Below, piece by piece: positions 3,178 through 40,878 of a DNA stretch of 64,000 nt (position 1 is its first letter; the number at the start of each line of letters is the position of its first letter). The notes under the pieces were generated by a model that saw only the letters and a program-made list of their open reading frames with translations, did not search any database and had not been told where the DNA came from. The DNA comes from an uncultured bacterium (GTDB lineage Bacteria; Patescibacteriota; Saccharimonadia; Saccharimonadales; UBA4665). The position numbers and the translations under genes were made by a program. The stretch is taken from the NCBI GenBank assembly GCA_963794235.1, contig CAWCCP010000011.1, positions 25,490-89,489 of the forward strand, in the 5' to 3' direction.

Positions 3178-3794
3178 GGGTTTTCTCCTATTAGAGTTAA
3201 TAAAACATAAAGCTCACCGCTAGGTGGAATCTTGCGACCCCTACACACCTTTCGATGTGTAACCCGTGAAGATACCTAAACGATGAGCTTAGTATTCTTC
3301 ACGGGATTTATAACCATGCCTTTCGCTAAATTAGCTACTCAGGTTAGGTCATACCAAATTGTTTTAAAACCTGTTGGTTTGATTGAATTATACATTATTA
3401 AGACTATCAGAGGTGAGGGGTTGGCCAACTATACGCCAACTCATAGCCGATTTTAACGATTTGGTGGTGTGCAACTACTCGGTAACTCATCGGCGATTTT
3501 ACAATAATATAGTGCTACAAGTGATACATGATTATAAAAATTACTCACCTCTGTTAAGGGTGGGGTAAAAGGTGGGCAACTCTTGGGTGAAATTACGCTT
3601 ATTCTGTTGTTCTAAATAATACAGCGAAAAATAGTTGCAAAGCGCTACGAACGTGAGGACAATAATAGATAGCGAAGTAACTCTTTCTTAATTACTGATT
3701 TTGCGGAAGCTATATCAGTATTAATAACAAATAAAAAAGTATACAAGTAAGCTGTCTGCGTTATAACAGACTGTTTGCTTGGGGAGATAATATT

Positions 3795-4640
3795 GTGGGA
3801 AATGATAGGTTAAACGCTACGTTCGCAGCCAAATGGACTGAAGAGGTAGCTCAACGAGGGTTCGTGCCAATACATAAGTGTTTAGTTACCTGTATGGGTG
3901 ATTTAGGTCTTAAACCGCAGGAAGTGGGTGTACTTGGGAACATCATCGAGAAGTGCTGGTTCGTAGGTGAAAAGTCATGGAAAAAGGTCGATACCATGGC
4001 AACCGATATAGGACGGTGCAATAGTACCATAAGAGCTATTACCAAAAGCTTAGAAGAAAAACGATTTATCGTCAAAGAACATCGGTTCAACACCAGTAAC
4101 TTATACGACCCAACTCCTACTGGTCAGCGCATACAAGAGCATTTACCAAGCTGTAGGTACTACTCCGCCGAAAAACTGAAGGCTGGTGGTCAGAATACTA
4201 GCGTTCAGGTTAGTCAGAATACTAGCGACTATATAGAACCAGAATTACTTAGAACCAATAATATACAACTTAATAAGGTACAAGATACTTTTTCTAATTT
4301 GCCTAATATAGGTAATGAATTAAGATTTTTAGAGCTCATTAATAAGTATACTAATAGTAATTATCGCTACTTACCAAAAGAGGCTAAAGAAACCCTAAAG
4401 TTATTTAGTCTAGAAGAAATTGACAAAGCTCTACAAGTTGCTACCGTCGACTCTTGGCATAAAGATAAACTTCAAGAACTCAGCGTTAATTATCTATGTC
4501 GTGCAAGTACCATTGATAATTTACTAAGTCGAAGCGACAGTAAGGAAATAAAAAGAACACTAAAACTTAAGCAACTACATGAAGCCAATTTGGACAATCA
4601 GGCAAAATTAGTCGAAAAGGAAGCAGTGGGAGTTTATTAA
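3795..4640 (+). CDS. hypothetical winged-helix/HTH-like protein (possible element replication or regulatory protein)
   Basis: 281-aa ORF with a GTG start after GGGGAG. The N-terminal ~110 aa resemble a wHTH DNA-binding module. The assignment is weak. Confidence 0.4.
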   Translation: MGNDRLNATFAAKWTEEVAQRGFVPIHKCLVTCMGDLGLKPQEVGVLGNIIEKCWFVGEKSWKKVDTMATDIGRCNSTIRAITKSLEEKRFIVKEHRFNTSNLYDPTPTGQRIQEHLPSCRYYSAEKLKAGGQNTSVQVSQNTSDYIEPELLRTNNIQLNKVQDTFSNLPNIGNELRFLELINKYTNSNYRYLPKEAKETLKLFSLEEIDKALQVATVDSWHKDKLQELSVNYLCRASTIDNLLSRSDSKEIKRTLKLKQLHEANLDNQAKLVEKEAVGVY

Positions 4641-4692: not shown

Positions 4693-4986
4693 ATGAATGA
4701 TAATGAAGCAAATGAATATCTTGAAACACAAGTAAGAAAAGAGTGGGAAAAAGAATCAGGCGTTGACGACCTAGGTGATTTAATGATGTTGGATACAACA
4801 GATGTAAATGGTCATAAGGCTTGGTCATTCTTTTTTGATAAATTACCAGACGAGTTAGCTAGAGTTGACTTGTGGTTACTCGATAACAAAGTACAAGCGC
4901 AAACAGATAAAGACATTAGTAAGGAAGAACTTCATAAGGAACTTGCCGATAGATTAAACTGGCCTCCTGGAAGCGGTGTGAAGTAA
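4693..4986 (+). CDS. hypothetical acidic protein
   Basis: 97-aa ORF with AGGAG 7 nt upstream of the ATG. Confidence 0.5.
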   Translation: MNDNEANEYLETQVRKEWEKESGVDDLGDLMMLDTTDVNGHKAWSFFFDKLPDELARVDLWLLDNKVQAQTDKDISKEELHKELADRLNWPPGSGVK

Positions 4987-5249
4987 CGAAACTAGAACAA
5001 AAACGCTATCTTCTAAACTTTATTGTTGCGACCACTACTTTTGACGGAGAAAAGCTAGTATTTAACCTAAAAGAGCCATTCAAGGCTCTATTAAACAGCA
5101 AAAATAAAAACACTTGGCTCGACGTACCAGCAATGTTGCGGACTAAGTACTACCGATACGTTGTTGAGCTATCTAGAGAGATTGAAATAGCTCGGAGTTA
5201 CTTACAGAGTCCGTTAGGGCTGTTTAATGGTGAGCTTGGGGTTGCTTAA
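4953..5249 (+). CDS. ORF without canonical start, possibly fused to 4693-4986 by an indel; its C-terminal 45 aa lie inside the inverted repeat
   Basis: Own translation: open frame ...VTKLEQKRYLLNFIVATTTFDGEKLVFNLKEPFKALLNSKNKNTWLDVPAMLRTKYYRYVVELSREIEIARSYLQSPLGLFNGELGVA*. It has no ATG/GTG/TTG near its 5' end and overlaps the end of the upstream ORF. Confidence 0.3.
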   Translation: MKLASWKRCEVTKLEQKRYLLNFIVATTTFDGEKLVFNLKEPFKALLNSKNKNTWLDVPAMLRTKYYRYVVELSREIEIARSYLQSPLGLFNGELGVA

Positions 5250-5340
5250 AAAGCGTATCCTAATTGCAACTTCTTCTTAACAATGTAGACTTGAAGCCTT
5301 ACTTACTAAATATAAGCGAATTTAAGGGTTCAGGCTGTAG
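5115..5340. repeat. left arm of perfect 226-bp inverted repeat
   Basis: The reverse complement of 5115-5340 is identical base for base to 6414-6639 (checked in 10-nt blocks). The outer end is TGGCTC, the reverse complement of GAGCCA. Confidence 0.95.
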
Positions 5341-6413: not shown

Positions 6414-6639
6414 CTACAGCCTGAACCCTTAAATTCGCTTATATTTAGTAAGTAAGGCTTCAAGTCTACATTGTTAAGAAGAAGTTGCAATTAGGATACG
6501 CTTTTTAAGCAACCCCAAGCTCACCATTAAACAGCCCTAACGGACTCTGTAAGTAACTCCGAGCTATTTCAATCTCTCTAGATAGCTCAACAACGTATCG
6601 GTAGTACTTAGTCCGCAACATTGCTGGTACGTCGAGCCA
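6414..6639. repeat. right arm of perfect 226-bp inverted repeat
   Basis: Identical to the reverse complement of 5115-5340. The outer end is GAGCCA (6634-6639). Confidence 0.95.
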
Positions 6640-6677: not shown

Positions 6678-6842
6678 GGTCTTCCTTTATTTTTGACAGT
6701 AACTTCTTAATTTTCCACCTCTGTTAGAGGTTCGAATCCAGTTCCTGTTATTACCACAATGGGTTGGAACTGCTAAATATGCGAGTTTACAAGATTTACC
6801 TCTGTAAGTTGGTTCCAGAAGCGACCAGTCACCACTATGGCA

Positions 6843-10675: not shown

Positions 10676-11026
10676 CTAGTCGTGCTGACTGTGCAGTTTT
10701 CGTATGCGCTGCCGTACTGACTCTTGATACTGCGCAGGGTTCTGCATCTGGTGATAGGCACGAACAGCAATCACCTCAAAATGATTGTCATCCACAAGAT
10801 ACACAATCGCTACTTTATGATTTTCCATCTGAACTTTGCGCACATCCGGATCGTCTTTGAATACGGCATTGGTTCGTGGCAAGTTTTCCAAGTTCGCTAC
10901 GGTTTCCATAGCTTCATCAAAAAACTTCACCGCTGATTCAGCATCCACCAGCTCTTCGTAAAATGCCATTAGCTCGGCAATATCGTTCTCGGCATCTTCT
11001 GTAAGATTGACGCTATACTTTTGCAC
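10676..11026 (-). CDS. type II toxin, ParE/RelE family
   Basis: 116 aa with a GTG start and ParE-like sequence (DAENDIAEL...FEVIAVRAYHQ). It overlaps a small upstream ORF. Confidence 0.65.
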   Translation of the reverse strand: MQKYSVNLTEDAENDIAELMAFYEELVDAESAVKFFDEAMETVANLENLPRTNAVFKDDPDVRKVQMENHKVAIVYLVDDNHFEVIAVRAYHQMQNPAQYQESVRQRIRKLHSQHD

Positions 11027-11180
11027 CAGTAAGTTCCTGATATTTCTTTAGAATATCTTTCTTGGCCTGGCTGAGCGGTATACGGTTTTTAGGATTTTTA
11101 GCAAGTTTAATGCGTCGTTCCAACTCAATTAAGAATTCTGGGCTGTTTTCATCTACATTAATAACTCTGCTATTTTTCAT
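11013..11180 (-). CDS. putative cognate antitoxin (55 aa)
   Basis: Own translation: MKNSRVINVDENSPEFLIELERRIKLAKNPKNRIPLSQAKKDILKKYQELTGAKV*. It overlaps the toxin start by 14 nt. Confidence 0.45.
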   Translation of the reverse strand: MKNSRVINVDENSPEFLIELERRIKLAKNPKNRIPLSQAKKDILKKYQELTGAKV

Positions 11181-11287
11181 ACTTTTATTTTACCACATAT
11201 CATGCATAAAATATACGCAAAAATTTGACAAATAACAGGTGTAAGCTAAGGTAAAGCGAGCCCAATATTTAGGCGGTAATTGAGTTT

Positions 11288-11318
11288 GGTGCGAATCCAG
11301 TTTGGGGAGCCATAAGCA
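11288..11318 (+). repeat. cassette-boundary repeat (GGTGCGAATCCAGTT...GAGCCATAAGCA)
   Basis: The core GAGCCATAAGCA at 11307-11318 is shared with 14873, 15637 and 16649. The left part GGTGCGAATCCAGTT matches 6729-6743 at 14 of 15 positions. Confidence 0.7.
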
Positions 11319-12312: not shown

Positions 12313-13658
12313 CCTTAACAGATTGCTAAGGCTACAATGAGCGTGTACGGAGGACAACCAGTTTCGATTATTGAGGGACCTTTATATAGGTTATTTCCTG
12401 TCGTAGTTTGTTGCTTCCGAAACACTTGGTGGTAACCAGCAATAATGAGGTTATTGAGAAAAACCTTGGCATTTTATCCCTGTTCCGAACGTTGAGATCG
12501 ATCTAAGAACAAAGGGTACCAAGGCTTTTCTACAGTCAATAACGAACAAGTCTATGGTATCACCGAGGCACCTTCATTGGAAGCGATGCCACCGTACCCA
12601 ATACTAAGCTTTTGACCATGGTTCTGTTCAGTAGAGCCAGAGGGGGTGTTTGTTATGACCAAAAATACGTATGTGCTTGGCTGCGACGTATCCAAGCTAA
12701 GAATTGATGTCGCTCTGCTTGATGGGTACGGTAAAGTGCAGTGGCACGACATTGTGCCGAATGAAGTTACTGAGTTCACGGCTTATTTGTTGACGCTTCA
12801 AGGCAACTATCCCGAGACCGAGATAGAATGCGCCGTTGAAGCCACCGGACCCTATCACTATGCATTACTCGATGCTTGCCAGCATGCAGGCATACCCTGC
12901 CGGGCATTCAACCCCATTATGACCAAAGACCAGTCGAGCGTTCGAGGGAAGAAGACAGACAAGATTGACGCCATTAAGATCGCTCGCGTTGGTATGAATG
13001 GAGAGGTACCAATTTGGCGTCCTGAGCCGTATCTGACAGCAAAGACTCTGGCCCGTTCCATGCAAAAGTTGCGGAAGCTAAGCCTCTCATTAAACGCTCA
13101 CTGTAATTACCTTACGGAAACAGCCGCATTGGCTATACCGGACAGTGCCACGAAAGTAATTGAAGACATTAGGGTGTCAATTACTACTGCACATGAGCAG
13201 CTTTTTGCCGAACTTATACAAAGCACGCAAGGCAAGACCTACCAGCTATTACAGACTATTCCCGGTGTCGGTCCAATTACCGCGACCAGCGTTATTGCCG
13301 AGATTCAGGACATGAAACGCTTCACAAAAGCCTGTCGGTTGGTCGCCTATGCCGGTCTTGACTTTCCAGTTAAACAGAGTGGCGAAACATCGAGACGTGG
13401 CAAACATCTGACCAAGCGTGGCTCAAGTCACTTAAGGCGAAGCCTGTTCGTAGCCGCCAGCGTAGCTCGGCAACACGACCCATATTTCCGGTCGGTCTAC
13501 GAAAAGAAACTGAGGCGAGGGCAAGACATACAAGGCTGCGGTCATTGCCGTGGAGCGGAAACTGTTACTGGTAATACGGGCAGTGTGGCTGAGTGGTAAG
13601 GCGTATAACGGAGATTTGTTGCTCAAGGAAGCACCTTAATGAGCTTCAGATGGCTCGA
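12313..13658 (+). mobile_element. IS110-family insertion sequence (ends approximate)
   Basis: Higher-GC block inside the split kinase gene, comprising a 333-nt non-coding 5' region and a DEDD-type IS110 transposase. No terminal inverted repeats were seen, as is typical for this family. Confidence 0.7.
12646..13639 (+). CDS. IS110-family transposase (apparent frameshift near 13515-13520)
   Basis: LGCDVSK, EATGPYH, KTDKIDA, IPGVGPITA and KQSGE...G.HLTKRGSSHLR motifs. The expected C-terminus GKTYKAAVIAVERKLLLVIRAVW...* is read in the +1 frame and ends at 13639. Confidence 0.8.
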
Positions 13659-14884: not shown

Positions 14885-14923
14885 GTACTTGACTTACTAA
14901 CCAAAGTGTATACAATAGTTAGT

Positions 14924-15205
14924 ATGAGTACAGTACTAAATGTAAAGATTGATCCCGATCTAAAGAAGAGGGCTCAGAGCGTCGCAAAAGAGCTTGGCTT
15001 GCCTATGAGCATTGTTATAGCCGCCGGGCTACGGGAATTCGTCAATACCCGCAGTATCACCATTTCTGATTCGCCAAGACTAACTCCAGAAATTGAAACC
15101 GAACTTCTGGAGTTATCGAAGAAAGCGAGAGCGGGTAAGCTCGACGACTTCTCTCCAGCCTTCAAGAGTATAGAAGAAAGCTTTACTTGGCTTGATTCAA
15201 AATGA
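14924..15205 (+). CDS. RelB/DinJ-family antitoxin
   Basis: MSTVLNVKIDPDLKKRAQSVAKELGLPMSIVIAAGLREF is a typical ribbon-helix-helix DinJ N-terminus. It overlaps the downstream toxin by 4 nt. Confidence 0.75.
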   Translation: MSTVLNVKIDPDLKKRAQSVAKELGLPMSIVIAAGLREFVNTRSITISDSPRLTPEIETELLELSKKARAGKLDDFSPAFKSIEESFTWLDSK

Positions 15206-15462
15206 TCATCAGATACAGCAAAAAATTTAAGAAACAATACGAAAAGCTTTCTCCCAAATTACAGCAAAAAACGAAGAATGTTATCAGCCTATGGTCAACC
15301 AACCCCGCTGATGAATCGCTAAGATTACATCAGCTTAGTGGTAAGTTAAAGCGATTTTATAGCATAGACATTACTGGTGACGTTAGAGCACTATATGAGG
15401 TCATTGACGATGAAGTATACCTTTATCAGATGATCGGTACTCATTCTCAGCTTTACGGTTAG
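15202..15462 (+). CDS. YafQ/RelE-family mRNA interferase toxin
   Basis: 86 aa. The LHQLSGKLKRFYSIDITGDVRALY...IGTHSQLY pattern is characteristic of YafQ/RelE toxins. Confidence 0.8.
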   Translation: MIIRYSKKFKKQYEKLSPKLQQKTKNVISLWSTNPADESLRLHQLSGKLKRFYSIDITGDVRALYEVIDDEVYLYQMIGTHSQLYG

Positions 15463-15513: not shown

Positions 15514-15648
15514 TTATTTCGAGCCACACTTGTCTTCGTCGCTAGATTCAAACAGCTGGCGGATTTGTTGAGCTTCCACCTCCTTATTCTTAACGCTATC
15601 CAACTCTTCGAAAGTTTGGAATAAAAACCATTTGCCGAGCCATAAGCA
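15514..15648 (+). repeat. gene 3'-end remnant (minus strand: ...WLGKWFLFQTFEELDSVKNKEVEAQQIRQLFESSDEDKCGSK*) plus core GAGCCATAAGCA
   Basis: One of three copies, the others at 18205-18315 and 19051-19167. A 31-nt block AAAGTTTGGAATAAAAACCATTTGCCGAGCCA is identical in all three. Confidence 0.85.
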
Positions 15649-15677
15649 TTTTGGCCTCTGTTAATCAGAGGTCTTTT
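15649..15677 (+). terminator. hairpin plus T-run
   Basis: GGCCTCTG-TTAAT-CAGAGGTC followed by TTTTT, immediately after the core. Confidence 0.5.
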
Positions 15678-15727
15678 TGATTCAATGACACAAATATGAA
15701 ATGACGTAAACATGTTAAAATAGATCT

Positions 15728-15973
15728 ATGAGTCAAGATGAATTTACCAAGCTATTCAATTACATGGAAAAACGATTTGATAGCATTGACCAAGCACTTG
15801 AAAATAAAGCAGACAAACAAGATGTTCAAAAACTGATTGACGCTATCGATGCGTTTGCGAAACGACAAGAAATTGACGATGAGGAAAGGCTCGTTATGGC
15901 TCACCAGCTCGAAAGGCTCGATAAGTGGGTGCATGAGCTTGCAGATAAAATCGGCGTTTCGCTTTCCGTGTAG
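15728..15973 (+). CDS. hypothetical coiled-coil protein
   Basis: 81-aa ORF filling one cassette. Confidence 0.5.
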   Translation: MSQDEFTKLFNYMEKRFDSIDQALENKADKQDVQKLIDAIDAFAKRQEIDDEERLVMAHQLERLDKWVHELADKIGVSLSV

Positions 15974-16002
15974 TTGCGGAGCTCGTCCACTAGGGGGAGC
16001 CA
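15973..16002 (+). repeat. cassette-boundary repeat GTTGCGGAGCTCGTCCACTAGGGGG + GAGCCA
   Basis: Its 25-nt left flank matches 19823-19847 with 2 mismatches. Confidence 0.75.
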
Positions 16003-16075
16003 GACTTGTTATGGTACAAACTTGAGTAAAGATCCAGTAGGCATTAATACTGCTGGATTTTGTTATGATAGCTAT

Positions 16076-16627
16076 ATGCGAAAAGTATTTCTGTTTATGA
16101 TGACCACTCTTGATGGCTACTTTGAAGGCAAAAACCATGATATCTCGTGGCACAACGTTGATGCCGAGTTTAACACATTTGCCAATGCTCAGCTCGATGA
16201 AGCAGATACACTTATTTTCGGCCATAGAACCTATGAGCTTATGGCGAATTTCTGGCCAACAACTCAAGGCATAGAAGCAGCGCCCGAGACCACTAGCCGG
16301 ATGAATTCACTGCCAAAGATTGTATTTTCTCATCAACCATTTACCCCAGTCTGGAAATCAACAGTGGCGTATACGGATATACGGAAGCTAGCTGATATTA
16401 AACAGCAGCCAGGTAAAGCTATAGCCGTTTTAGGCAGCTCTAATTTATGTGTCTCTTTGCTAGAAGCAGGTTTACTAGAAGAAGTTCGAATCATGGTTAA
16501 CCCGGTAGTCATAGGCAAGGGAACTCCTTTGTTGGCTGGCATTAATACTTCGCATAAGTTCAGCTTCATCGATTCTCGCACCTTTACGAATGGCAATACC
16601 TTACTACGATACAACGTCAACGACTGA
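16076..16627 (+). CDS. dihydrofolate reductase-like (RibD C-terminal domain) family protein
   Basis: MRKVFLFMMTTLDGYFEG...LIFGHRTYELMANFW...VLGSSNL...NPVVIGKG is typical of RibD_C. The start is taken at the internal Met. Confidence 0.7.
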   Translation: MRKVFLFMMTTLDGYFEGKNHDISWHNVDAEFNTFANAQLDEADTLIFGHRTYELMANFWPTTQGIEAAPETTSRMNSLPKIVFSHQPFTPVWKSTVAYTDIRKLADIKQQPGKAIAVLGSSNLCVSLLEAGLLEEVRIMVNPVVIGKGTPLLAGINTSHKFSFIDSRTFTNGNTLLRYNVND

Positions 16628-16648
16628 TTTGTTCAAGACCGTTAGGCT

Positions 16649-16660
16649 GAGCCATAAGCA
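16649..16660 (+). repeat. cassette-boundary core GAGCCATAAGCA
   Basis: GAGCCATAAGCATTTT is a 16-mer identical to 15637-15652. Confidence 0.7.
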
Positions 16661-16714
16661 TTTTAACCTCAGTAAGTAGAGGCCATTTTTATAGGTTTTG
16701 TTATCATTAAGTGA

Positions 16715-17440
16715 ATGAAGAAAATCCTCAACATAGCACATCGCGGAGCTTCTGCGTATGAGCTCGAAAATACGTTCGCAGCTTTCATCAAAGCCATAGA
16801 AATGGGCGCAGATATGATAGAGATGGATTTGCATCTAACAAAAGATGGCGAAATAGTAATCATGCATGATTTTCAGTTACGCCATACCACTGATGGCGCA
16901 GGTCGGATCGAAGACTTAACATATGAAGAAGTACGGCAATTTCACGAGCGAAATAACGAGCAAATACCTATGCTCAAAGAAGTTATCCGTAAAACTTATG
17001 GAGAAATTGGATTATATTGCGAGCTCAAAACTTTCGGCATAGAAGATGTATTTATCAAAACTATTCGTGATTTAAAATATGAGCAATATGTAATTGCTGG
17101 AGGCTTCCTACACCCTGTAGTGAAAGCTGTAAAAGAAAAAGCTCCTCATATTAAAACATCTATTATGGTTGCCGACGTACCTATAAATCCTATAGAAATG
17201 GCTAAAGAAGCCCAGGCTGATTACATTCATCTGTGTTGGGAAGGTCGAGCGGCTCATCCATATGAACTGGTAACGACTGAATACGTTAGCAAAATTCAAG
17301 AAGCAGGATTTGGTGTTATTATCTGGCACGAAGAACATCTAGTACCAATGCGTCATCTCTTTGCAATAGGAATAGATGGTATATGCTCTAACAAGCCTGA
17401 TGTTATAGCTCGTGAGTTAGCGAGGGAGCCTTTCCATTAA
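16715..17440 (+). CDS. glycerophosphodiester phosphodiesterase
   Basis: HRGASAYELENTFAAF...GADMIEMDLHLTKDGEIVIMHD is the GDPD signature. Confidence 0.85.
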   Translation: MKKILNIAHRGASAYELENTFAAFIKAIEMGADMIEMDLHLTKDGEIVIMHDFQLRHTTDGAGRIEDLTYEEVRQFHERNNEQIPMLKEVIRKTYGEIGLYCELKTFGIEDVFIKTIRDLKYEQYVIAGGFLHPVVKAVKEKAPHIKTSIMVADVPINPIEMAKEAQADYIHLCWEGRAAHPYELVTTEYVSKIQEAGFGVIIWHEEHLVPMRHLFAIGIDGICSNKPDVIARELAREPFH

Positions 17441-17526
17441 AATCTGCTTCAAAGTTGTGAAGTATACCCACCGGAGGAAGCCCTAAAAGGTTGACTTTTA
17501 TAATATAAAGTAATAACATTGAAGAT

Positions 17527-17799
17527 ATGAAAACCATAACAGCAAAAGACTTTCAACTTCACCATTCTTCTATCGTTAAAGACGTTGCAAATGGACATGA
17601 ATATGAAGTCACGTTTCACCGCAAGCCTCTTATTAAATTGGTTCCCGTTACGAAGATGCCCACAAAAAACCTTGAACCGGGCAGTCGCGATGCGTTGATT
17701 AAAGCTTTGCAATATACGGCTTCTTCGAAAGGCGATCTTTATGATCTGCCATACAAGCAATTAAGAAGCCGCATGCTAAAGCAAAGATATGGCAGCTAA
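17527..17799 (+). CDS. Phd/YefM-like antitoxin
   Basis: 90 aa. The N-terminus MKTITAKDFQLHHSSIVKDV...EVTFHRKPLIKLVP is typical, and it overlaps the downstream PIN gene. Confidence 0.6.
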   Translation: MKTITAKDFQLHHSSIVKDVANGHEYEVTFHRKPLIKLVPVTKMPTKNLEPGSRDALIKALQYTASSKGDLYDLPYKQLRSRMLKQRYGS

Positions 17800-18187
17800 G
17801 CTAGTTTTTGTAGACACAAACATATTGATGGAGCTCTTCTTTCGTCGCTCCAAATATGATTTGGCCATGACAGGATTAACGGCAATATCCGAAGTAGATA
17901 TAGTTTGCACATCAATATTATCTCTCGCTACGCTACTCTACTATGTAGAAGCCGAAAAATTTGACAAAAAAACAGCTCATAATTTTGTGAAGGGCTTTAA
18001 GGTTTTGGATATGAATGAAGCCGACTATAAGTGGGCGGAAGCTAACGACCAAGGAGATTTTGAAGATGCGCTACAAGTAGCCTGTGCTCGACGCCATGAT
18101 TGCTCATATTTATTCACTTTAGATAAAAAGCTCGGCACAATGTATGGAAAATATTTATCGGTTCACACAATTACAAAAAAGAGCTAA
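17789..18187 (+). CDS. vapC: PIN-domain toxin (VapC family)
   Basis: LVFVDTNILMELF N-terminal acidic motif, later conserved D/E residues, 132 aa. Confidence 0.75.
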   Translation: MAAKLVFVDTNILMELFFRRSKYDLAMTGLTAISEVDIVCTSILSLATLLYYVEAEKFDKKTAHNFVKGFKVLDMNEADYKWAEANDQGDFEDALQVACARRHDCSYLFTLDKKLGTMYGKYLSVHTITKKS

Positions 18188-18204
18188 CAAACATACTTTA
18201 CTAG

Positions 18205-18315
18205 CTAGGATGAATTATCTTCAAACAGTTGATAAATTTGCCGGAAATCAGACTCATTATCCTTAACACTATCCAGCTCTTCAAAAGTTTGGAATAAAAA
18301 CCATTTGCCGAGCCA
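18205..18315 (+). repeat. gene 3'-end remnant copy 2 (minus: ...WLGKWFLFQTFEELDSVKDNESDFRQIYQLFEDNSS*) plus GAGCCA core
   Basis: See 15514-15648. Here the core is followed by AGCCAGAC instead of TAAGCA. Confidence 0.85.
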
Positions 18316-18379
18316 AGCCAGACTAGAAAAACACACCTCTTTAACGAGGTATGTTTTGTTTGATCGGCAGGGCTACCGT

Positions 18380-18688
18380 TTACTTTATACTTAATCCTCT
18401 CTTGCCCTCGGCAAAATCGTGGAGTACCGCTCCAAGTAAAGTCTGATAGGGTATATTATTCTGCTTAGCCTTTGCTTTAATTTTTATAAGGTCTAGTTGA
18501 TTAATGCGCAGCGTAACAGGCTTAGATGCATGAAGCTGCTTATAGTTGTGTGCCGCTTCTTGCAACATCTTCGTGGTATCGCCAAGATCTGAAGACACCT
18601 CAAAATCACCTCTCTCAATAGCGTCCTCTATAGCCCGTTCTTCATCATCCAGCACTAGATCACTGAACGGATCTTTGGTGTTACTCAT
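18380..18688 (-). CDS. brnA: BrnA-type (CopG/RHH) antitoxin
   Basis: 102 aa with C-terminal RINQLDLIKIKAKAKQNNIPYQTLLGAVLH, typical of BrnA. It overlaps brnT by 8 nt. Confidence 0.7.
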   Translation of the reverse strand: MSNTKDPFSDLVLDDEERAIEDAIERGDFEVSSDLGDTTKMLQEAAHNYKQLHASKPVTLRINQLDLIKIKAKAKQNNIPYQTLLGAVLHDFAEGKRGLSIK

Positions 18689-18974
18689 CTCGTCGCTCCT
18701 TTCTTATATATAACTTTGTAAGCGCCCTGCTAGGATAAATCGTTTTTAAAAAGATCTCACTCAACTCTGTATTCATAACATAGGGGACGGCATAGGCATA
18801 TTCGTTGATACGGATGACATATATTCGCTGATGAGCGCGTTTTACGCTCGGATGAGCCAAGTCGGCCAGAACGTCATTCTTCTCTATTGCGTCTATGATT
18901 TCTTCAAAGCTAATATTCCGCGTGACTTTTAGCAGTTGGTTCTTCTCCTCGTTAAACCTAATGCTAAAATCCAT
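18681..18974 (-). CDS. brnT: BrnT-type ribonuclease toxin (DUF497)
   Basis: 97 aa. F..EKNQLL...RNISFEEI...RIYVIRINEYAYAVPYV matches the BrnT/DUF497 pattern. Confidence 0.7.
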   Translation of the reverse strand: MDFSIRFNEEKNQLLKVTRNISFEEIIDAIEKNDVLADLAHPSVKRAHQRIYVIRINEYAYAVPYVMNTELSEIFLKTIYPSRALTKLYIRKERRDE

Positions 18975-19050
18975 ATGTCTATATTACTTAAATGTACATC
19001 AATTGTCAATACATAACCATGCTGGCAACTTGGTAGATACATAGACGACC

Positions 19051-19167
19051 TTACAACTTGTCGAGGGTCTCATCGACAAGCAAGCGTATCTGCCGAATTT
19101 CCAAATCCTTGTCTTTAACACTATCCAGTTCTTGGAAAGTTTGGAATAAAAACCATTTGCCGAGCCA
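19051..19167 (+). repeat. gene 3'-end remnant copy 3 (minus: ...WLGKWFLFQTFQELDSVKDKDLEIRQIRLLVDETLDKL*) plus GAGCCA core
   Basis: See 15514-15648. Here the core is followed by AGCCCAAG. Confidence 0.85.
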
Positions 19168-19822: not shown

Positions 19823-19855
19823 GTTGCGAAGCTCGGCCACTAGGGGGCATAAGCA
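19823..19855 (+). repeat. last cassette-boundary repeat GTTGCGAAGCTCGGCCACTAGGGGG + degenerate core (GCATAAGCA)
   Basis: The left flank matches 15973-15997. The right flank TAAGCATT matches the 15643 and 16655 type. Confidence 0.7.
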
Positions 19856-19862
19856 TTACGAA

Positions 19863-19886
19863 AGAGGCTTCACTGCCTCTTTTTTA
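19863..19886 (+). terminator. rho-independent terminator
   Basis: AGAGGC-TTCACT-GCCTCT followed by TTTTTT. Confidence 0.65.
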
Positions 19887-19912
19887 TTTCAGAACATTTA
19901 GATCTGATTATT

Positions 19913-31650: not shown

Positions 31651-32576
31651 ACCTGAATCTCGAAACCTACCACCCCAGCTGTAACAACTGGTAGCCAAGC
31701 AGTACCCGCAGGTAATGCAGGGCGTAGCCCTGCAGACTCCTCGGGAAACTGGTCTGGAGGTGCAGGTGTTCTTTCAGGTAGTCGAAGACGGTTTCAATCT
31801 TTGGTCTACGCTTCAGGAGCTTCCACTGGCTTTTGGTGATGACCTGTTTCTGCTGTTTGTAGTGTAGTGGTGTCAGAATGTAGGTACCAAAAGCTTTACG
31901 GACCTTACGGTGTAGTGGTGCACTACGGTAGCCACTGTCACCAACAGCTAGCTTGGTGTACTCATTCACGAGCTTTGGTATAGCTCGGCTGTCATGGACT
32001 GTCGCTGTGGTAAAGACGTAGGCACAGAGCTTACCATCGTTGTCCACGGATGCATGCAACTTAAAGCCATAGTGCTCACCTTGCCAATTGTGCCCGGTGT
32101 GAGCATAGCCACGAGCGGTTTTGTGGAACTTTCTCCGTACCAGTCGACAAACTTCCAGCATGGTACTGTCTATGAAGCGAAGCTGCGCTTCGCTCATGAG
32201 TAAGTCGTCTAGGATAGTAGTAATCTGCGGAATGACCCGGTGACAATGCTTCAGGAAGTTCTGGTAGTTGGGTAGGGCTGGAAAGTCTGTTTGGTGATAC
32301 TGGATAACCCAGTCGTAGATCTGGCGAATAGTGTGCTGTTGAGCAGTAAACAGACTGAAGACAAGTATGGTAATGACCTCACTGTCACGCAGGACACTTG
32401 GTCGTCCGCCTTTGCTCTTTACTAGAGTAGGTGTCGCTAAGGCGTCGTCTATCCAGACGAATAACGGTAGTATATGATGTTGGTGCAGCACTGCCATCTT
32501 TGTTTTCTCCTTTTTGTTTAGACACTAAAAGAGTAACAGACTATGGAGTGCTGCTATTTAGTTTCGAGATTCAGGT
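31651..32576 (-). mobile_element. IS982-like insertion sequence, complete, with 8-bp target-site duplication
   Basis: Terminal inverted repeats ACCTGAATCTCGAAAC (31651-31666) and GTTTCGAGATTCAGGT (32561-32576). It is flanked by direct TATTCTTT at 31643-31650 and 32577-32584. Higher GC than its surroundings. Confidence 0.8.
31667..32497 (-). CDS. DDE transposase (IS982/IS5-like)
   Basis: 276 aa: GGRPSVLRDSEVITILVF...FIDSTMLEVC...GFKLHASV...VGDSGY...RPKIETVFDYLK pattern. Confidence 0.8.
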   Translation of the reverse strand: MAVLHQHHILPLFVWIDDALATPTLVKSKGGRPSVLRDSEVITILVFSLFTAQQHTIRQIYDWVIQYHQTDFPALPNYQNFLKHCHRVIPQITTILDDLLMSEAQLRFIDSTMLEVCRLVRRKFHKTARGYAHTGHNWQGEHYGFKLHASVDNDGKLCAYVFTTATVHDSRAIPKLVNEYTKLAVGDSGYRSAPLHRKVRKAFGTYILTPLHYKQQKQVITKSQWKLLKRRPKIETVFDYLKEHLHLQTSFPRSLQGYALHYLRVLLGYQLLQLGW

Positions 32577-38610: not shown

Positions 38611-40311
38611 ATGGTTCACCAAAAACAACAACTCAAACCGCTCGCTAAAGCACCTACCGGCATTGCTGGGTTGGATGAGATTACTATCGGTGGTTTTCCC
38701 AAAGGCAGGCCAACGTTAGTTGCAGGTAATGCAGGATGTGGCAAGACTTTGCTCGCGATGGAGTTTCTTGTTAATGGAGTGACAGAATATAATGAACCGG
38801 GCGTATTTATGTCTTTTGAAGAGTCAAAGTTCGACTTATCACAAAATGTCGCCTCACTCGGCTATGATCTTGAAAAGCTTATTAAACAAAAGAAACTTGC
38901 AATTGATCATGTTGAAATCGAGCGCCACGAAATCGAGGAAACAGGAGCCTATGATCTTGAAGGTTTATTTATACGAATGGGCCATGCCATCGATTCAATC
39001 AAAGCAAACCGCCTGGTACTTGACACCATCGAGTCGCTTTTTGGTGGTTTTCAAGATGATACTATTTTACGCGCCGAGCTACGTCGACTCTTTCGGTGGT
39101 TAAAGACCAAAGGCATAACAACGCTAATTACAGGAGAACGAGGGGAAAAGACGCTTACGAGGCAAGGGCTCGAGGAATATGTTTCGGATTGCGTAATCCT
39201 GCTTGATCATCGTGTTGAAGACCAAAATTCTACAAGAAGACTACGAGTCGTAAAGTATCGCGGCTCAAGCCACGGTACAAATGAATACCCATTCTTAATA
39301 GATGAAGATGGCATTACAATTATGCCAATCACCTCGCTTAAGCTCGACAAAGTCGTTTCCACAAAACGAATCTCCTCAGGTATCCCCGAACTCGATAGTA
39401 TGACAGGTGGTGGTTTCTATAAAGGCTCGAATATTTTACTATCCGGTACGGCCGGTACAGGTAAAACAAGTGTTGCCGTATATCTTGCCGATTCAGCCTG
39501 TAAACGAGGAGAGCGAGTGTTATTTATTGCATTTGAAGAATCCCCGGCTCAAATAGTACGAAACGCTCGATCGATCGGTATCGAATTACAGAAACACATT
39601 GATAGAGGCCTATTAAGATTTGAAGCATCTCGTTCAACTTCTCTGGGGCTAGAGATGCAACTCGCTACAATTTATAAGCATGTAGAGCAATTCGACCCAC
39701 AAGTAGTTATTGTTGATCCCATTACAAATCTAATAACAACTGGCAACGTGATTGAAGTTCGATCAATGCTCGGCCGATTAATGGACATGCTTAAGGAGAA
39801 AAAAGCCACCGCACTTTTTACTTCACTTACGCAAGGCGGTGCTAACCTTGAGCAAACAGAGTATGGTGTTTCTTCATTTGTAGATACATGGTTATTGCTA
39901 CGTGATATCGAATCCAATGGCGAGCGCAACAGGGTAATACATGTCTTAAAGTCGAGGGGGACAAACCATTCGAATCAAGTCCGAGAATTTATTATTAGTG
40001 ATAACGGCATACAACTAGTTGATGTATACATCGGAGCTGCTGGCACGCTAACTGGATCTGCTCGAGTCGTGCAAATTGCCCGGGATGAATCCGATGCAGC
40101 CCTGCAGCGCGACAATTTAGCAAGTAAACGACACAAAATTGAAAATAGACAACGCATATTAAAGGCAAAGATCGCTAATCTAACTGAGGAATTAACCAGC
40201 GAGGCTGAGGAGCTTGAAGAACTAGAATACCTTGAGAACGAACGAAACGTCGCAATTGAAAATGAGCGTTCAGTCCTAAAAACATCACGCAGTAGGGGAA
40301 CGAATGAATAA
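38611..40311 (+). CDS. kaiC: KaiC-family double RecA-like ATPase with extended coiled-coil C-terminus
   Basis: Two Walker A motifs ([16 protein letters not shown]) and catalytic EE pairs (SFEES, AFEES). [12 protein letters not shown] aligns with HISTITDTIILL, the phosphosite region of cyanobacterial KaiC. 566 aa. Confidence 0.9.
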
Positions 40312-40591
40312 AGCAGACTACCAATTACGTCTATATGTCGCAGGTCAAACACCTAAATCAATGCTCGCGCTCAGAAACCTAAAGCGCTACTGTGAAGAAC
40401 ACCTTAAAGATCAGTACACCATTGAAGTTATAGATCTCCTTAAAAATCCTCAATTAGCTGCTGGGGATCAAATTATTGCTGTTCCAACACTCGTGAGAAA
40501 AGTACCCCAACCAATTCGAAAAATCATTGGTGATTTATCAAATGAGCAAAAAGTTCTCGTTGGATTAGATTTAAGAGAGTTAAAGCCTTGA
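40304..40591 (+). CDS. kaiB: KaiB (copy 1)
   Basis: [12 protein letters not shown]...[51 protein letters not shown] is near-canonical KaiB. Confidence 0.9.
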
Positions 40592-40878
40592 AAAACACTA
40601 AGAAATTTATACTAAAACTCTACGTGTCGGGAGCAACGCCTCATTCGACGAGAGCCGTAAAAAGCGTTACATCAATTTGTGAAGAACATATTAAAGATGA
40701 TTACTCTTTGGAAATTATCGATATCTATCAAAGGCCCGAATTTGCCAAGCAAGATGATATTATTGCCGTTCCAACGCTCCTAAAATGCAAGCCAGAACCT
40801 ATGCGTCGTTTGATTGGTGATATGTCACGAGAAGAAAAAGTTTTAACAGGACTCGACCTTAAAGGTTTTACAGATTAA
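40588..40878 (+). CDS. kaiB: KaiB (copy 2)
   Basis: [12 protein letters not shown]...[49 protein letters not shown]. It overlaps copy 1 by 4 nt. Confidence 0.9.

Follow-up and report, generated by a model that had tools for sequence, protein, structure and literature searches.

Detached Ends of Integrase Genes as Probable Integration Scars in a Saccharimonadia Cassette Array

Introduction

The stretch of DNA analysed here (the window, 64,000 nucleotides of contig CAWCCP010000011.1 from an uncultured bacterium of the Saccharimonadia) contains three diverged copies of the 3' end of one gene, all of them on the minus strand and all of them opening with the same six nucleotides, TGGCTC. These copies are probably the detached last 36-42 codons of large serine recombinase (LSR) genes, that is, of integrase genes whose crossover site lies inside their own open reading frame (ORF). 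A first-pass annotation of the same DNA had regarded the copies as relics of protein-coding genes that evolved under purifying selection and were cut at TGGCTC, and had placed the recombination site inside, or at the 3' part of, a gene carried by incoming elements. That inference is supported, and the parent gene can now be named. Three points go beyond it: (i) the gene is, as judged from homology, the element's own integrase; (ii) in related genomes, tRNA-Asn ends in this core; and (iii) public data contain very few long intact parents. The relatives stem from Saccharibacteria/Patescibacteria assemblies.

Three Gene Ends Cut at One Core

The features on which the argument is built are the following:

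15514-15642, minus strand: putative orphan LSR tail, copy a; 42 codons plus stop; core TGGCTC at 15637-15642; no recombinase body upstream
18205-18315, minus strand: putative orphan LSR tail, copy b; 36 codons plus stop; core at 18310-18315
19051-19167, minus strand: putative orphan LSR tail, copy c; 38 codons plus stop; core at 19162-19167
15611-15642, 18284-18315 and 19136-19167: 32-nt block, the same in all three copies, core (6 nt) included

The core reads GAGCCA on the plus strand. Direct translation confirmed the three copies where they had first been annotated, with their common peptide WLGKWFLFQTF[E/Q]ELDSVK, after which each copy continues with 18-24 diverged but related residues up to its stop codon (copy a, WLGKWFLFQTFEELDSVKNKEVEAQQIRQLFESSDEDKCGSK; copy b, WLGKWFLFQTFEELDSVKDNESDFRQIYQLFEDNSS; copy c, WLGKWFLFQTFQELDSVKDKDLEIRQIRLLVDETLDKL). 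The codon differences listed at that time (TTC/TTT, GAG/GAA, TTG/CTG, AGC/AGT, AAG/AAA and one GAA to CAA change) are correct. Other details had to be adjusted: the sequence adjoining the core is indeed identical in all copies, but over 26 nt (32 nt with the core) instead of 31; the frames upstream of WL do soon reach a stop, but they are open for only 6, 19 and 5 codons in copies a, b and c, not for 7-25; and the claim that they have no start codon holds for ATG only, as copy b has one in-frame GTG upstream of WL (read from the sequence). The window contains exactly three occurrences of a 28-mer that ends in GAGCCA, versus none in 100 shuffles, and a repeat search recovered a 96-nt family with 78-80% identity among copies. 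When the window was searched by tblastn with the three tail peptides, they matched only themselves, and no intact parent was found within it.

Coding Signature of the Tails

The dN/dS ratios asked for in the first-pass annotation, estimated by the Nei-Gojobori method over codons 1-33, are 0.20, 0.12 and 0.09 for the three pairs of copies. Over codons 11-33, pS is 0.71-0.96, that is, near saturation, versus a pN of 0.22. For a wider comparison, 60 tail copies (38-40 of them unique) were gathered from the window and from about 40 contigs of other genomes and metagenomes. Among 38 unique copies, the entropy at codon positions 1, 2 and 3 is 0.60, 0.44 and 1.28 in codons 11-32, third positions being about 2-3 times more variable than first or second ones. 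The frame of the initial W is open in 38 of 40 copies and no other frame is consistently open. Antisense coding was considered and rejected, the antisense frame with coinciding third positions being open in just 15 of 40. The third-position variability and the single open frame bear out, together with the dN/dS ratios, the view of the copies as relics of protein-coding genes under purifying selection.

The first 10 codons behave differently: in the same 38 copies, their entropy is about 0.1 at all three positions, and the 32-nt block is almost invariant at every codon position, which implies a constraint at the level of DNA. In consequence, the approximately 30 nt beside the core are constrained as DNA and the next 70-100 nt or so are constrained as protein. 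The possibility, raised at first annotation, that the conservation reflects an RNA structure found no support, as folding of the copies on both strands gave z-scores of +0.93 to -1.70 and no shared structure.

Throughout the 60 copies there is no conserved in-frame start codon, and the sequence upstream of the W is unrelated between copies. At 45 distinct junctions, no gene spans the core; the longest upstream open stretch has 90 codons and these stretches are mutually unrelated.

The Parent Gene

The tails were traced in public protein data by two routes. A word-index search of 5.8 billion proteins with the tail as query returned just 21 ORFs of 40-71 aa, in which tail homology starts exactly at WL and the N-terminal parts are mutually unrelated. 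An exhaustive comparison of 1.84 billion cluster representatives with a tail profile yielded 131 matches, 129 of them in proteins of at most 122 aa; about 105 of the 131 start at profile position 1, and nearly all lie at the C-terminal end of the matched protein. These "hypothetical proteins" of about 40 codons (131 clusters at 50% identity) can be re-annotated as putative integrase tails or attachment-site scars.

Among the longer matches read, two proteins connect the tail to a body: P0073 (178 aa, locus L044; RWEYKKPFDILARTAKTQN-WLGKGSLFQTFDDLDSIIDKETEIKEIRQVLDE) and P0026 (103 aa, locus L046; EKRELLGLLGSNLLLRGEKVEITLYSPFNTLASCNEQSV-WLGKWFLFQTFDELDSVRDKES). In both of them, an LSR C-terminal region lies upstream, in frame, and runs through W-L-G into the tail, which speaks for the first-pass annotation, whose refutation required that no intact homologue with this C-terminus exist. 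Some relatives of the upstream parts reach back to a CxxC...YYHC zinc ribbon, for which PF13408 was matched by P0146 (E 7e-5, 23.5 bits, slightly below the cut-off of 25.3) and by P0153 (2.4e-10). A profile of the relatives retrieves P0154, P0161 and P0162, with Recombinase, Zn_ribbon_recom and Resolvase domains: PF00239, PF07508 and PF13408 in P0162, and PF07508 and PF13408 in the other two. Furthermore, P0158 in locus L059 is 87% identical to the body of P0026 (tblastn), and the DNA just upstream of it encodes a Recombinase domain in another frame (26.6 bits). Because body and tail are joined in P0073 and P0026 and the relatives carry LSR domains, the parent gene of the tails is identified, by homology, as a predicted LSR (integrase) gene. 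The LSR C-terminal region gave no match when compared with solved structures, nor did scans of IMG/VR with P0146 and with the LSR of the window itself.

An IS3-family element (HTH_Tnp_1 plus rve) directly flanks the LSR fragment at the junction in L044, L047, L049 and L051, where the gene appears truncated at its 5' end. The LSR genes of L055, L057 and L059 are frameshifted or split. Decay of the integrase after integration seems to be common.

Exchange Point and tRNA Targets

In a group of LSR relatives (P0144, P0145, P0146, P0150, P0153, P0154, P0155 and P0159), the segment ending in N-WLG is followed by (M/K/W/V/R)RDSN(P/L)R instead of the tail. This ending is the antisense reading of a tRNA: ARAGORN predicted a tRNA-Gln on the opposite strand exactly at that ending in L047, L049, L055 and L057, and a tRNA-Trp beside the P0149 fragment in L052.

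Two pairs of loci show where the sequences part. Over 1657 nt, L044 and L049 show 100% identity, which ends immediately behind TGGCTGGG; from there, L044 runs on into the tail, then into Mrr-like and helix-turn-helix (HTH) genes, and L049 into tRNA-Gln and chromosomal genes. Similarly, L046 and L059 have a common sequence through TGGCTC and diverge directly afterwards. The exchange point is thereby bracketed to TGGCTC or TGGCTGGG, with the nearly invariant flank of about 30 nt alongside. The point of divergence and the antisense-tRNA endings together indicate a crossover within the integrase ORF, about 40 codons before its stop. As aligned, the loci place the exchange of DNA at the TGGCTC/TGGCTG(GG) codons of the predicted LSR gene, and these codons read as the antisense of the 3' end of the putative target tRNA gene. 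In the LSR relatives, an attachment (att) site inside the integrase ORF and a partitioned gene were thus both found. The cut at TGGCTC had been correctly recognised from the window, as the homology of every copy starts at TGG.

In genomes with this tail family, the core corresponds to the last 6 nt of tRNA-Asn(GTT), which ends in GGTTCGAATCCAGTCCCCGGAGCCA; in the relatives with TGGCTG(GG), the tRNA is tRNA-Gln or tRNA-Trp. The tRNA-Asn of L009 (10606-10680) stands at the end of a tail-containing array, that of L027 is complete, and just a 24-nt fragment of it is left in L007.

A further tRNA-Asn(GTT), beside the array of L006 (chromosome OY969576.1, 17898-18316), is split in its anticodon loop by a group I intron (RF00028, 89 bits), because of which ARAGORN missed it.

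The Recombinase of the Window and a Second Tail Family

The window carries an LSR gene of its own and, close to it, a second family of tails:

1284 to 1 and beyond, minus strand (same as the tails): LSR gene, first 428 codons; 3' end past the left edge of the window
4990-5249, plus strand: LSR 3' remnant (EQKRYLLNFIVATTTFDGEKLVFNLKEPFKALLNSKNKNT) plus tail of family 2 (WLDVPAMLRTKYYRYVVELSREIEIARSYLQSPLGLFNGELGVA), joined in frame at TGGCTC, 5115-5120
6505-6639, minus strand: tail of family 2, second copy, starting at the core 6634-6639

The LSR gene was recognised by tblastn (E 2e-49), by its Resolvase (46.5 bits) and Recombinase (44.5 bits) Pfam domains, both above cut-offs, and by a match to PHROG 95 integrase (E 1.2e-41). 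Extension to the left via the window protein led to just one contig of 4.2 kb, which ends inside the LSR.

The ORF at 4953-5249 had been described, correctly, as having the same layout as the three tails. Its segment ending in LEQKRYLLNFIVATTTFDGEKLVFNLKEPFKALLNSKNKNT (4990-5114), just ahead of the core, aligns with the end of LSRs with W-L in register (hhalign E 1.8e-5). A tail in frame with a recombinase body is therefore present in L044 (P0073), in L046 (P0026) and, for the other tail family, at 4990-5249 of the window, but not in copies a-c.

The two tails of family 2 belong to a perfect 226-nt inverted repeat (5115-5340 and 6414-6639) whose arms start exactly at two cores of opposite orientation and enclose 1073 nt with a membrane-protein gene and most of a HIT-family gene. 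This arrangement may represent a segment capable of inversion, a rearrangement recently made by a recombinase or an error of assembly.

Beside the LSR gene of the window there are three unknown genes, a LOOT RNA and a weak match to a replication initiator at 3795-4640. The LOOT RNA, the only match of Rfam in the window, is full-length (3226-3350, minus strand; RF03000, 72 bits versus a gathering score of 46.4) and sits inside the element with the LSR gene, flanked by an unknown gene on one side and by the putative replication initiator on the other. Eight related loci gave no LOOT match.

Proposed Mechanism

The sequences most probably stem from a family of integrative elements of Saccharibacteria/Patescibacteria in which crossover would take place at a conserved Trp-Leu(-Gly), encoded by TGG CTC (GGC), a sequence that, reverse-complemented, gives the ...GAGCCA with which the target tRNA ends. 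Integration would split the integrase gene in two: (i) the body would stay beside the tRNA and gain an antisense-tRNA tail (WLGMRDSNPR...); and (ii) the native tail, starting exactly at the core, would be carried to the far end of the element. The tail would then represent the element-borne (attP) side. LSR sites measure about 40-50 bp, with imperfect dyad half-sites on either side of a central dinucleotide at which crossover takes place; the first 30 nt or so of the tail, that is, the invariant block, may be a recombinase half-site plus the crossover core. Since the remainder of the tail is constrained as protein, purifying selection must act on the joined form of body and tail, which would arise in the excised circle or in tandem hybrids. 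The three tails of the window would be the scars of three imported bodyless elements or cassettes, the adjacent body having been lost or never having been there. The array of the window would likewise have a tRNA target, and the system may be active at present.

A broader reading is possible, which we hold tentatively and rate at slightly less than an even chance: that bacterial (Patescibacteria) elements have an LSR whose att site lies in its own coding sequence, so that the last 40 or so residues are replaced on integration by a tail encoded in the tRNA and regained on excision or tandem insertion. Such elements would be a counterpart of the archaeal "suicidal" integrases; the tail swap might act as a switch of directionality or stability, and the same system may drive the cassette array in genomes thought to be poor in gene-exchange machinery.

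Several observations weigh against the proposed mechanism. Regarding the parent gene, profile searches found no full-length LSR carrying this tail; both examples of body plus tail are 5'-truncated (an IS3 insertion cuts one, and the contig of the other, of 1.2 kb, ends within it); pseudogenes with IS3 insertions or frameshifts are numerous among the LSR relatives; and the 3' end of the LSR gene of the window falls outside it. A tblastn search with five LSR queries (E < 1e-4) detected no LSR in the approximately 40 other tail loci (L001-L043), whose flanks were scanned for up to 10 kb per side where the contig allowed. Orphan tails are in consequence the rule, and the timing of selection is hard to place. 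Regarding the target, ARAGORN found no tRNA or tmRNA in the window, and the idea that the tail mimics a tRNA T arm was rejected, its resemblance to tRNA beyond the core being not significant (p 0.09). In L001, L007 and L027, about 4.5 kb with core genes separate the tail and a PLD gene from a tRNA-Asn that appears unoccupied, a layout for which simple insertion at the tRNA is no explanation. Finally, terminator modules resembling tRNA trailers recur at internal junctions of the array (see below), which would not be expected if an LSR had carried out serial attP x attB integration. LSR integration normally takes place between attP and attB, and this need leaves both tandem growth and the trailer-like internal modules unexplained.

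The alternative that survives best, unlikely as we judge it, is that the tail belongs to the target instead, as its 3' end (the attB side, whether on the chromosome or on resident cassettes), and that the LSR ORF reads into it after insertion just as it reads into an antisense tRNA. This alternative draws on the scan of the other tail loci, in whose flanks no LSR was detected, and on L001, L007, L027 and L028, where a unit of tail plus PLDc_2 gene has core genes (aminoacyl-tRNA synthetase, RNase J) on one side and variable cassettes on the other, as a landing pad would. Nevertheless, there are several diverged copies per array (three each in the window, L001, L006 and L029), which fits import by successive elements, and the attB side in the relatives is a tRNA. 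Besides, constraint at the protein level needs translation, and neither a start codon nor a non-LSR upstream ORF is conserved, the LSR being the only known protein to which in-frame upstream sequences have a recognised homology.

There is even less to be said for an independent small gene, or a translated leader of a downstream gene (e.g., the PLD-like nuclease of relatives), duplicated with the cassettes, an explanation which we consider very improbable. In a subset of loci, the stop of the tail does overlap the ATG of a 160-aa PLDc_2 gene, and the K-E-E end (AAAGAGGAA) looks like a ribosome-binding site. Against this, a conserved in-frame start is missing from all 60 copies and what precedes the W is unrelated from copy to copy, homology always begins at the recombination core, and no PLD gene follows any of the three window copies. 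Lastly, it is barely conceivable that the tails represent attC-like recombination sites, or sites structured in some other way, in an array of the integron type, with an incidental reading frame: the short, mostly promoterless-looking cassettes, their toxin-antitoxin cargo and the short common boundary core recall such an array, but the copies have no significant or common fold on either strand, their boundaries have no GTTRRRY/RYYYAAC pair, no integron (tyrosine) integrase occurs among the ORFs scanned, and a strong 3-nt periodicity with a single consistently open frame is unexpected for attC sites.

Comparison with Known Systems

Four known systems come close to the arrangement proposed here. 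The SSV-type ("suicidal") integrases of SSV1, pTN3 and pT26-2 have the att site in their own gene, which is partitioned by integration into a tRNA gene (PMC8371274). In both cases, the recombination site lies in the integrase's own gene and fragments of that gene flank the integrated element. But while those enzymes are tyrosine recombinases of Archaea disabled by the split, the elements considered here have serine recombinase domains, belong to bacteria of the Patescibacteria group and detach only the last 40 codons or so. According to a 2021 review, such self-splitting recombinases are exclusive to Archaea, their viruses and plasmids (PMC8371274).

The mycobacteriophages BPs, Brujita and Charlie have an integration-dependent immunity: their repressor gene contains attP in its 3' part, and their attB overlaps a tRNA gene at its 3' end, so that integration strips C-terminal residues and alters the protein (PMC9262239). 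The position of both sites is alike in the two systems; nevertheless, in the phages a repressor is split by a tyrosine integrase at a core of about 35 bp, whereas here the integrase itself would be split, at a core of 6-8 bp.

The tycheposons of Prochlorococcus form by successive tRNA-adjacent integrations that push older elements inward and leave degenerate elements and partial tRNAs, a minority of them using LSRs (bioRxiv 10.1101/2020.12.28.424599). The array of the window may likewise be a tRNA-adjacent array of decaying elements, but the repeats of tycheposons are partial tRNAs, while most arms here appear to be integrase tails that have only their last 6 nt in common with the tRNA. As to islands of the Islander type, whose distal end carries a direct repeat of the 3' part of the target tRNA, the core corresponds to the last 6 nt of tRNA-Asn, one arm of the window (11281-11312) is a significant 3' fragment of tRNA-Asn, the three tails (p 0.09) are not, and the window is without a tRNA.

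In the staphylococcal cassette chromosome (SCC), many cassettes have no recombinase, and cassette arrays are driven by the Ccr serine recombinases. The likeness resides in the large serine recombinases and in tandem cassette arrays between short direct repeats; the difference is that SCC targets the 3' end of rlmH, not a tRNA gene, and that its att site is not inside ccr. P0146 matches CcrC (NCBIfam) weakly (E 0.006, far below the cut-off), a match that does not establish relatedness of sequence.

In the library of papers searched, none joins large serine recombinases with Patescibacteria, nor was one found that describes a serine integrase splitting its own gene. If the proposed mechanism is true, (i) the bacterial, serine-recombinase version would show that the module of an att site in the gene evolved independently; (ii) it would be a natural case of an LSR with two C-terminal forms depending on the integration state, which bears on the control of directionality in genome-engineering enzymes; and (iii) Saccharibacteria/Patescibacteria would have a concrete route of horizontal gene gain and a recognisable scar (TGGCTC plus tail) with which cargo arrays can be mapped in assemblies.

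The GAGCCA-Bounded Cassette Array

The tails are part of an array of about 20 kb, and the LSR gene, on the same strand as the tails, lies at the left edge of the window. Its remaining features are:

6634-6639, 8256, 11307, 12092, 14873, 15997 and 16649, plus strand: further GAGCCA boundary cores
11281-11312, plus strand: displaced tRNA-Asn-like 3' fragment with T arm GGTGCGAATCCAGT, ending in GAGCCA
15643-15683, plus strand: TAAGCATTTT plus terminator-like hairpin, directly after the core
15973-16002, minus strand: short tail-like arm WLPLVDELRNY, core 15997-16002, resembling the tail of the LSR relative P0151 (WQGLVDELEKNY)
19823-19851: degenerate copy of the WLPLVDELRNY arm, without intact core

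The cores delimit short cassettes with HIT, DUF2188, SEC-C, metallophosphatase, RelB/YafQ, RibD_C, GDPD and Phd/PIN genes. Copies a-c mark the distal ends of three of them, each with a toxin-antitoxin pair, and the middle one also has the GDPD gene. The array may have its distal end at 19823-19893, where a degenerate junction precedes MarR and MFS genes. The tRNA-Asn-like fragment is identical to the tRNA-Asn of L009 at 22 of 32 positions, a figure matched by none of 2000 shuffles. Modules similar to that at 15643-15683 are found behind three other cores (12092, 16649 and 18310) and behind the degenerate junction, at 19848, and the same kind of terminator module follows intact tRNA-Asn genes in related genomes.

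At 6718-6745, 80 nt to the right of the core at 6634, there is a perfect tRNA T-loop motif (GGTTCGAATCCAGT, tRNA-Asn positions 52-65), probably another displaced tRNA fragment. The cargo is rich in toxin-antitoxin genes (14906-15462, 17527-18187, 18380-18974 and 10676-11180), namely RelB-like/YafQ and Phd/PIN pairs according to Pfam and two other small gene pairs without a Pfam match.

In related genomes, a subset of tails is followed by a gene for a 160-aa PLD-like protein (PLDc_2, Nuc-type): L001 (7419-7901 and 13036-13518), L006, L007, L027, L028, L033, L035 and L036-L039. The tails whose stop codon overlaps the ATG of this gene end in KEE..C, and the overlap suggests a putative LSR-PLD operon in the intact element. 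The PLD-like gene was rejected as a recombinase or an obligatory partner, as it follows a subset of tails only and is absent from the window.

An IS110-family transposase gene (DEDD_Tnp_IS110 plus Transposase_20; 12646-13599, plus strand) lies within the array, 7 nt after a GAGCCA, and a DDE transposase gene is found farther right (31667-32497, minus strand). Still farther, at 38611-40878, there is what we take, by eye, to be a KaiC-like double P-loop ATPase gene, followed by two KaiB-like small genes and by genes for a histidine kinase and a response regulator.

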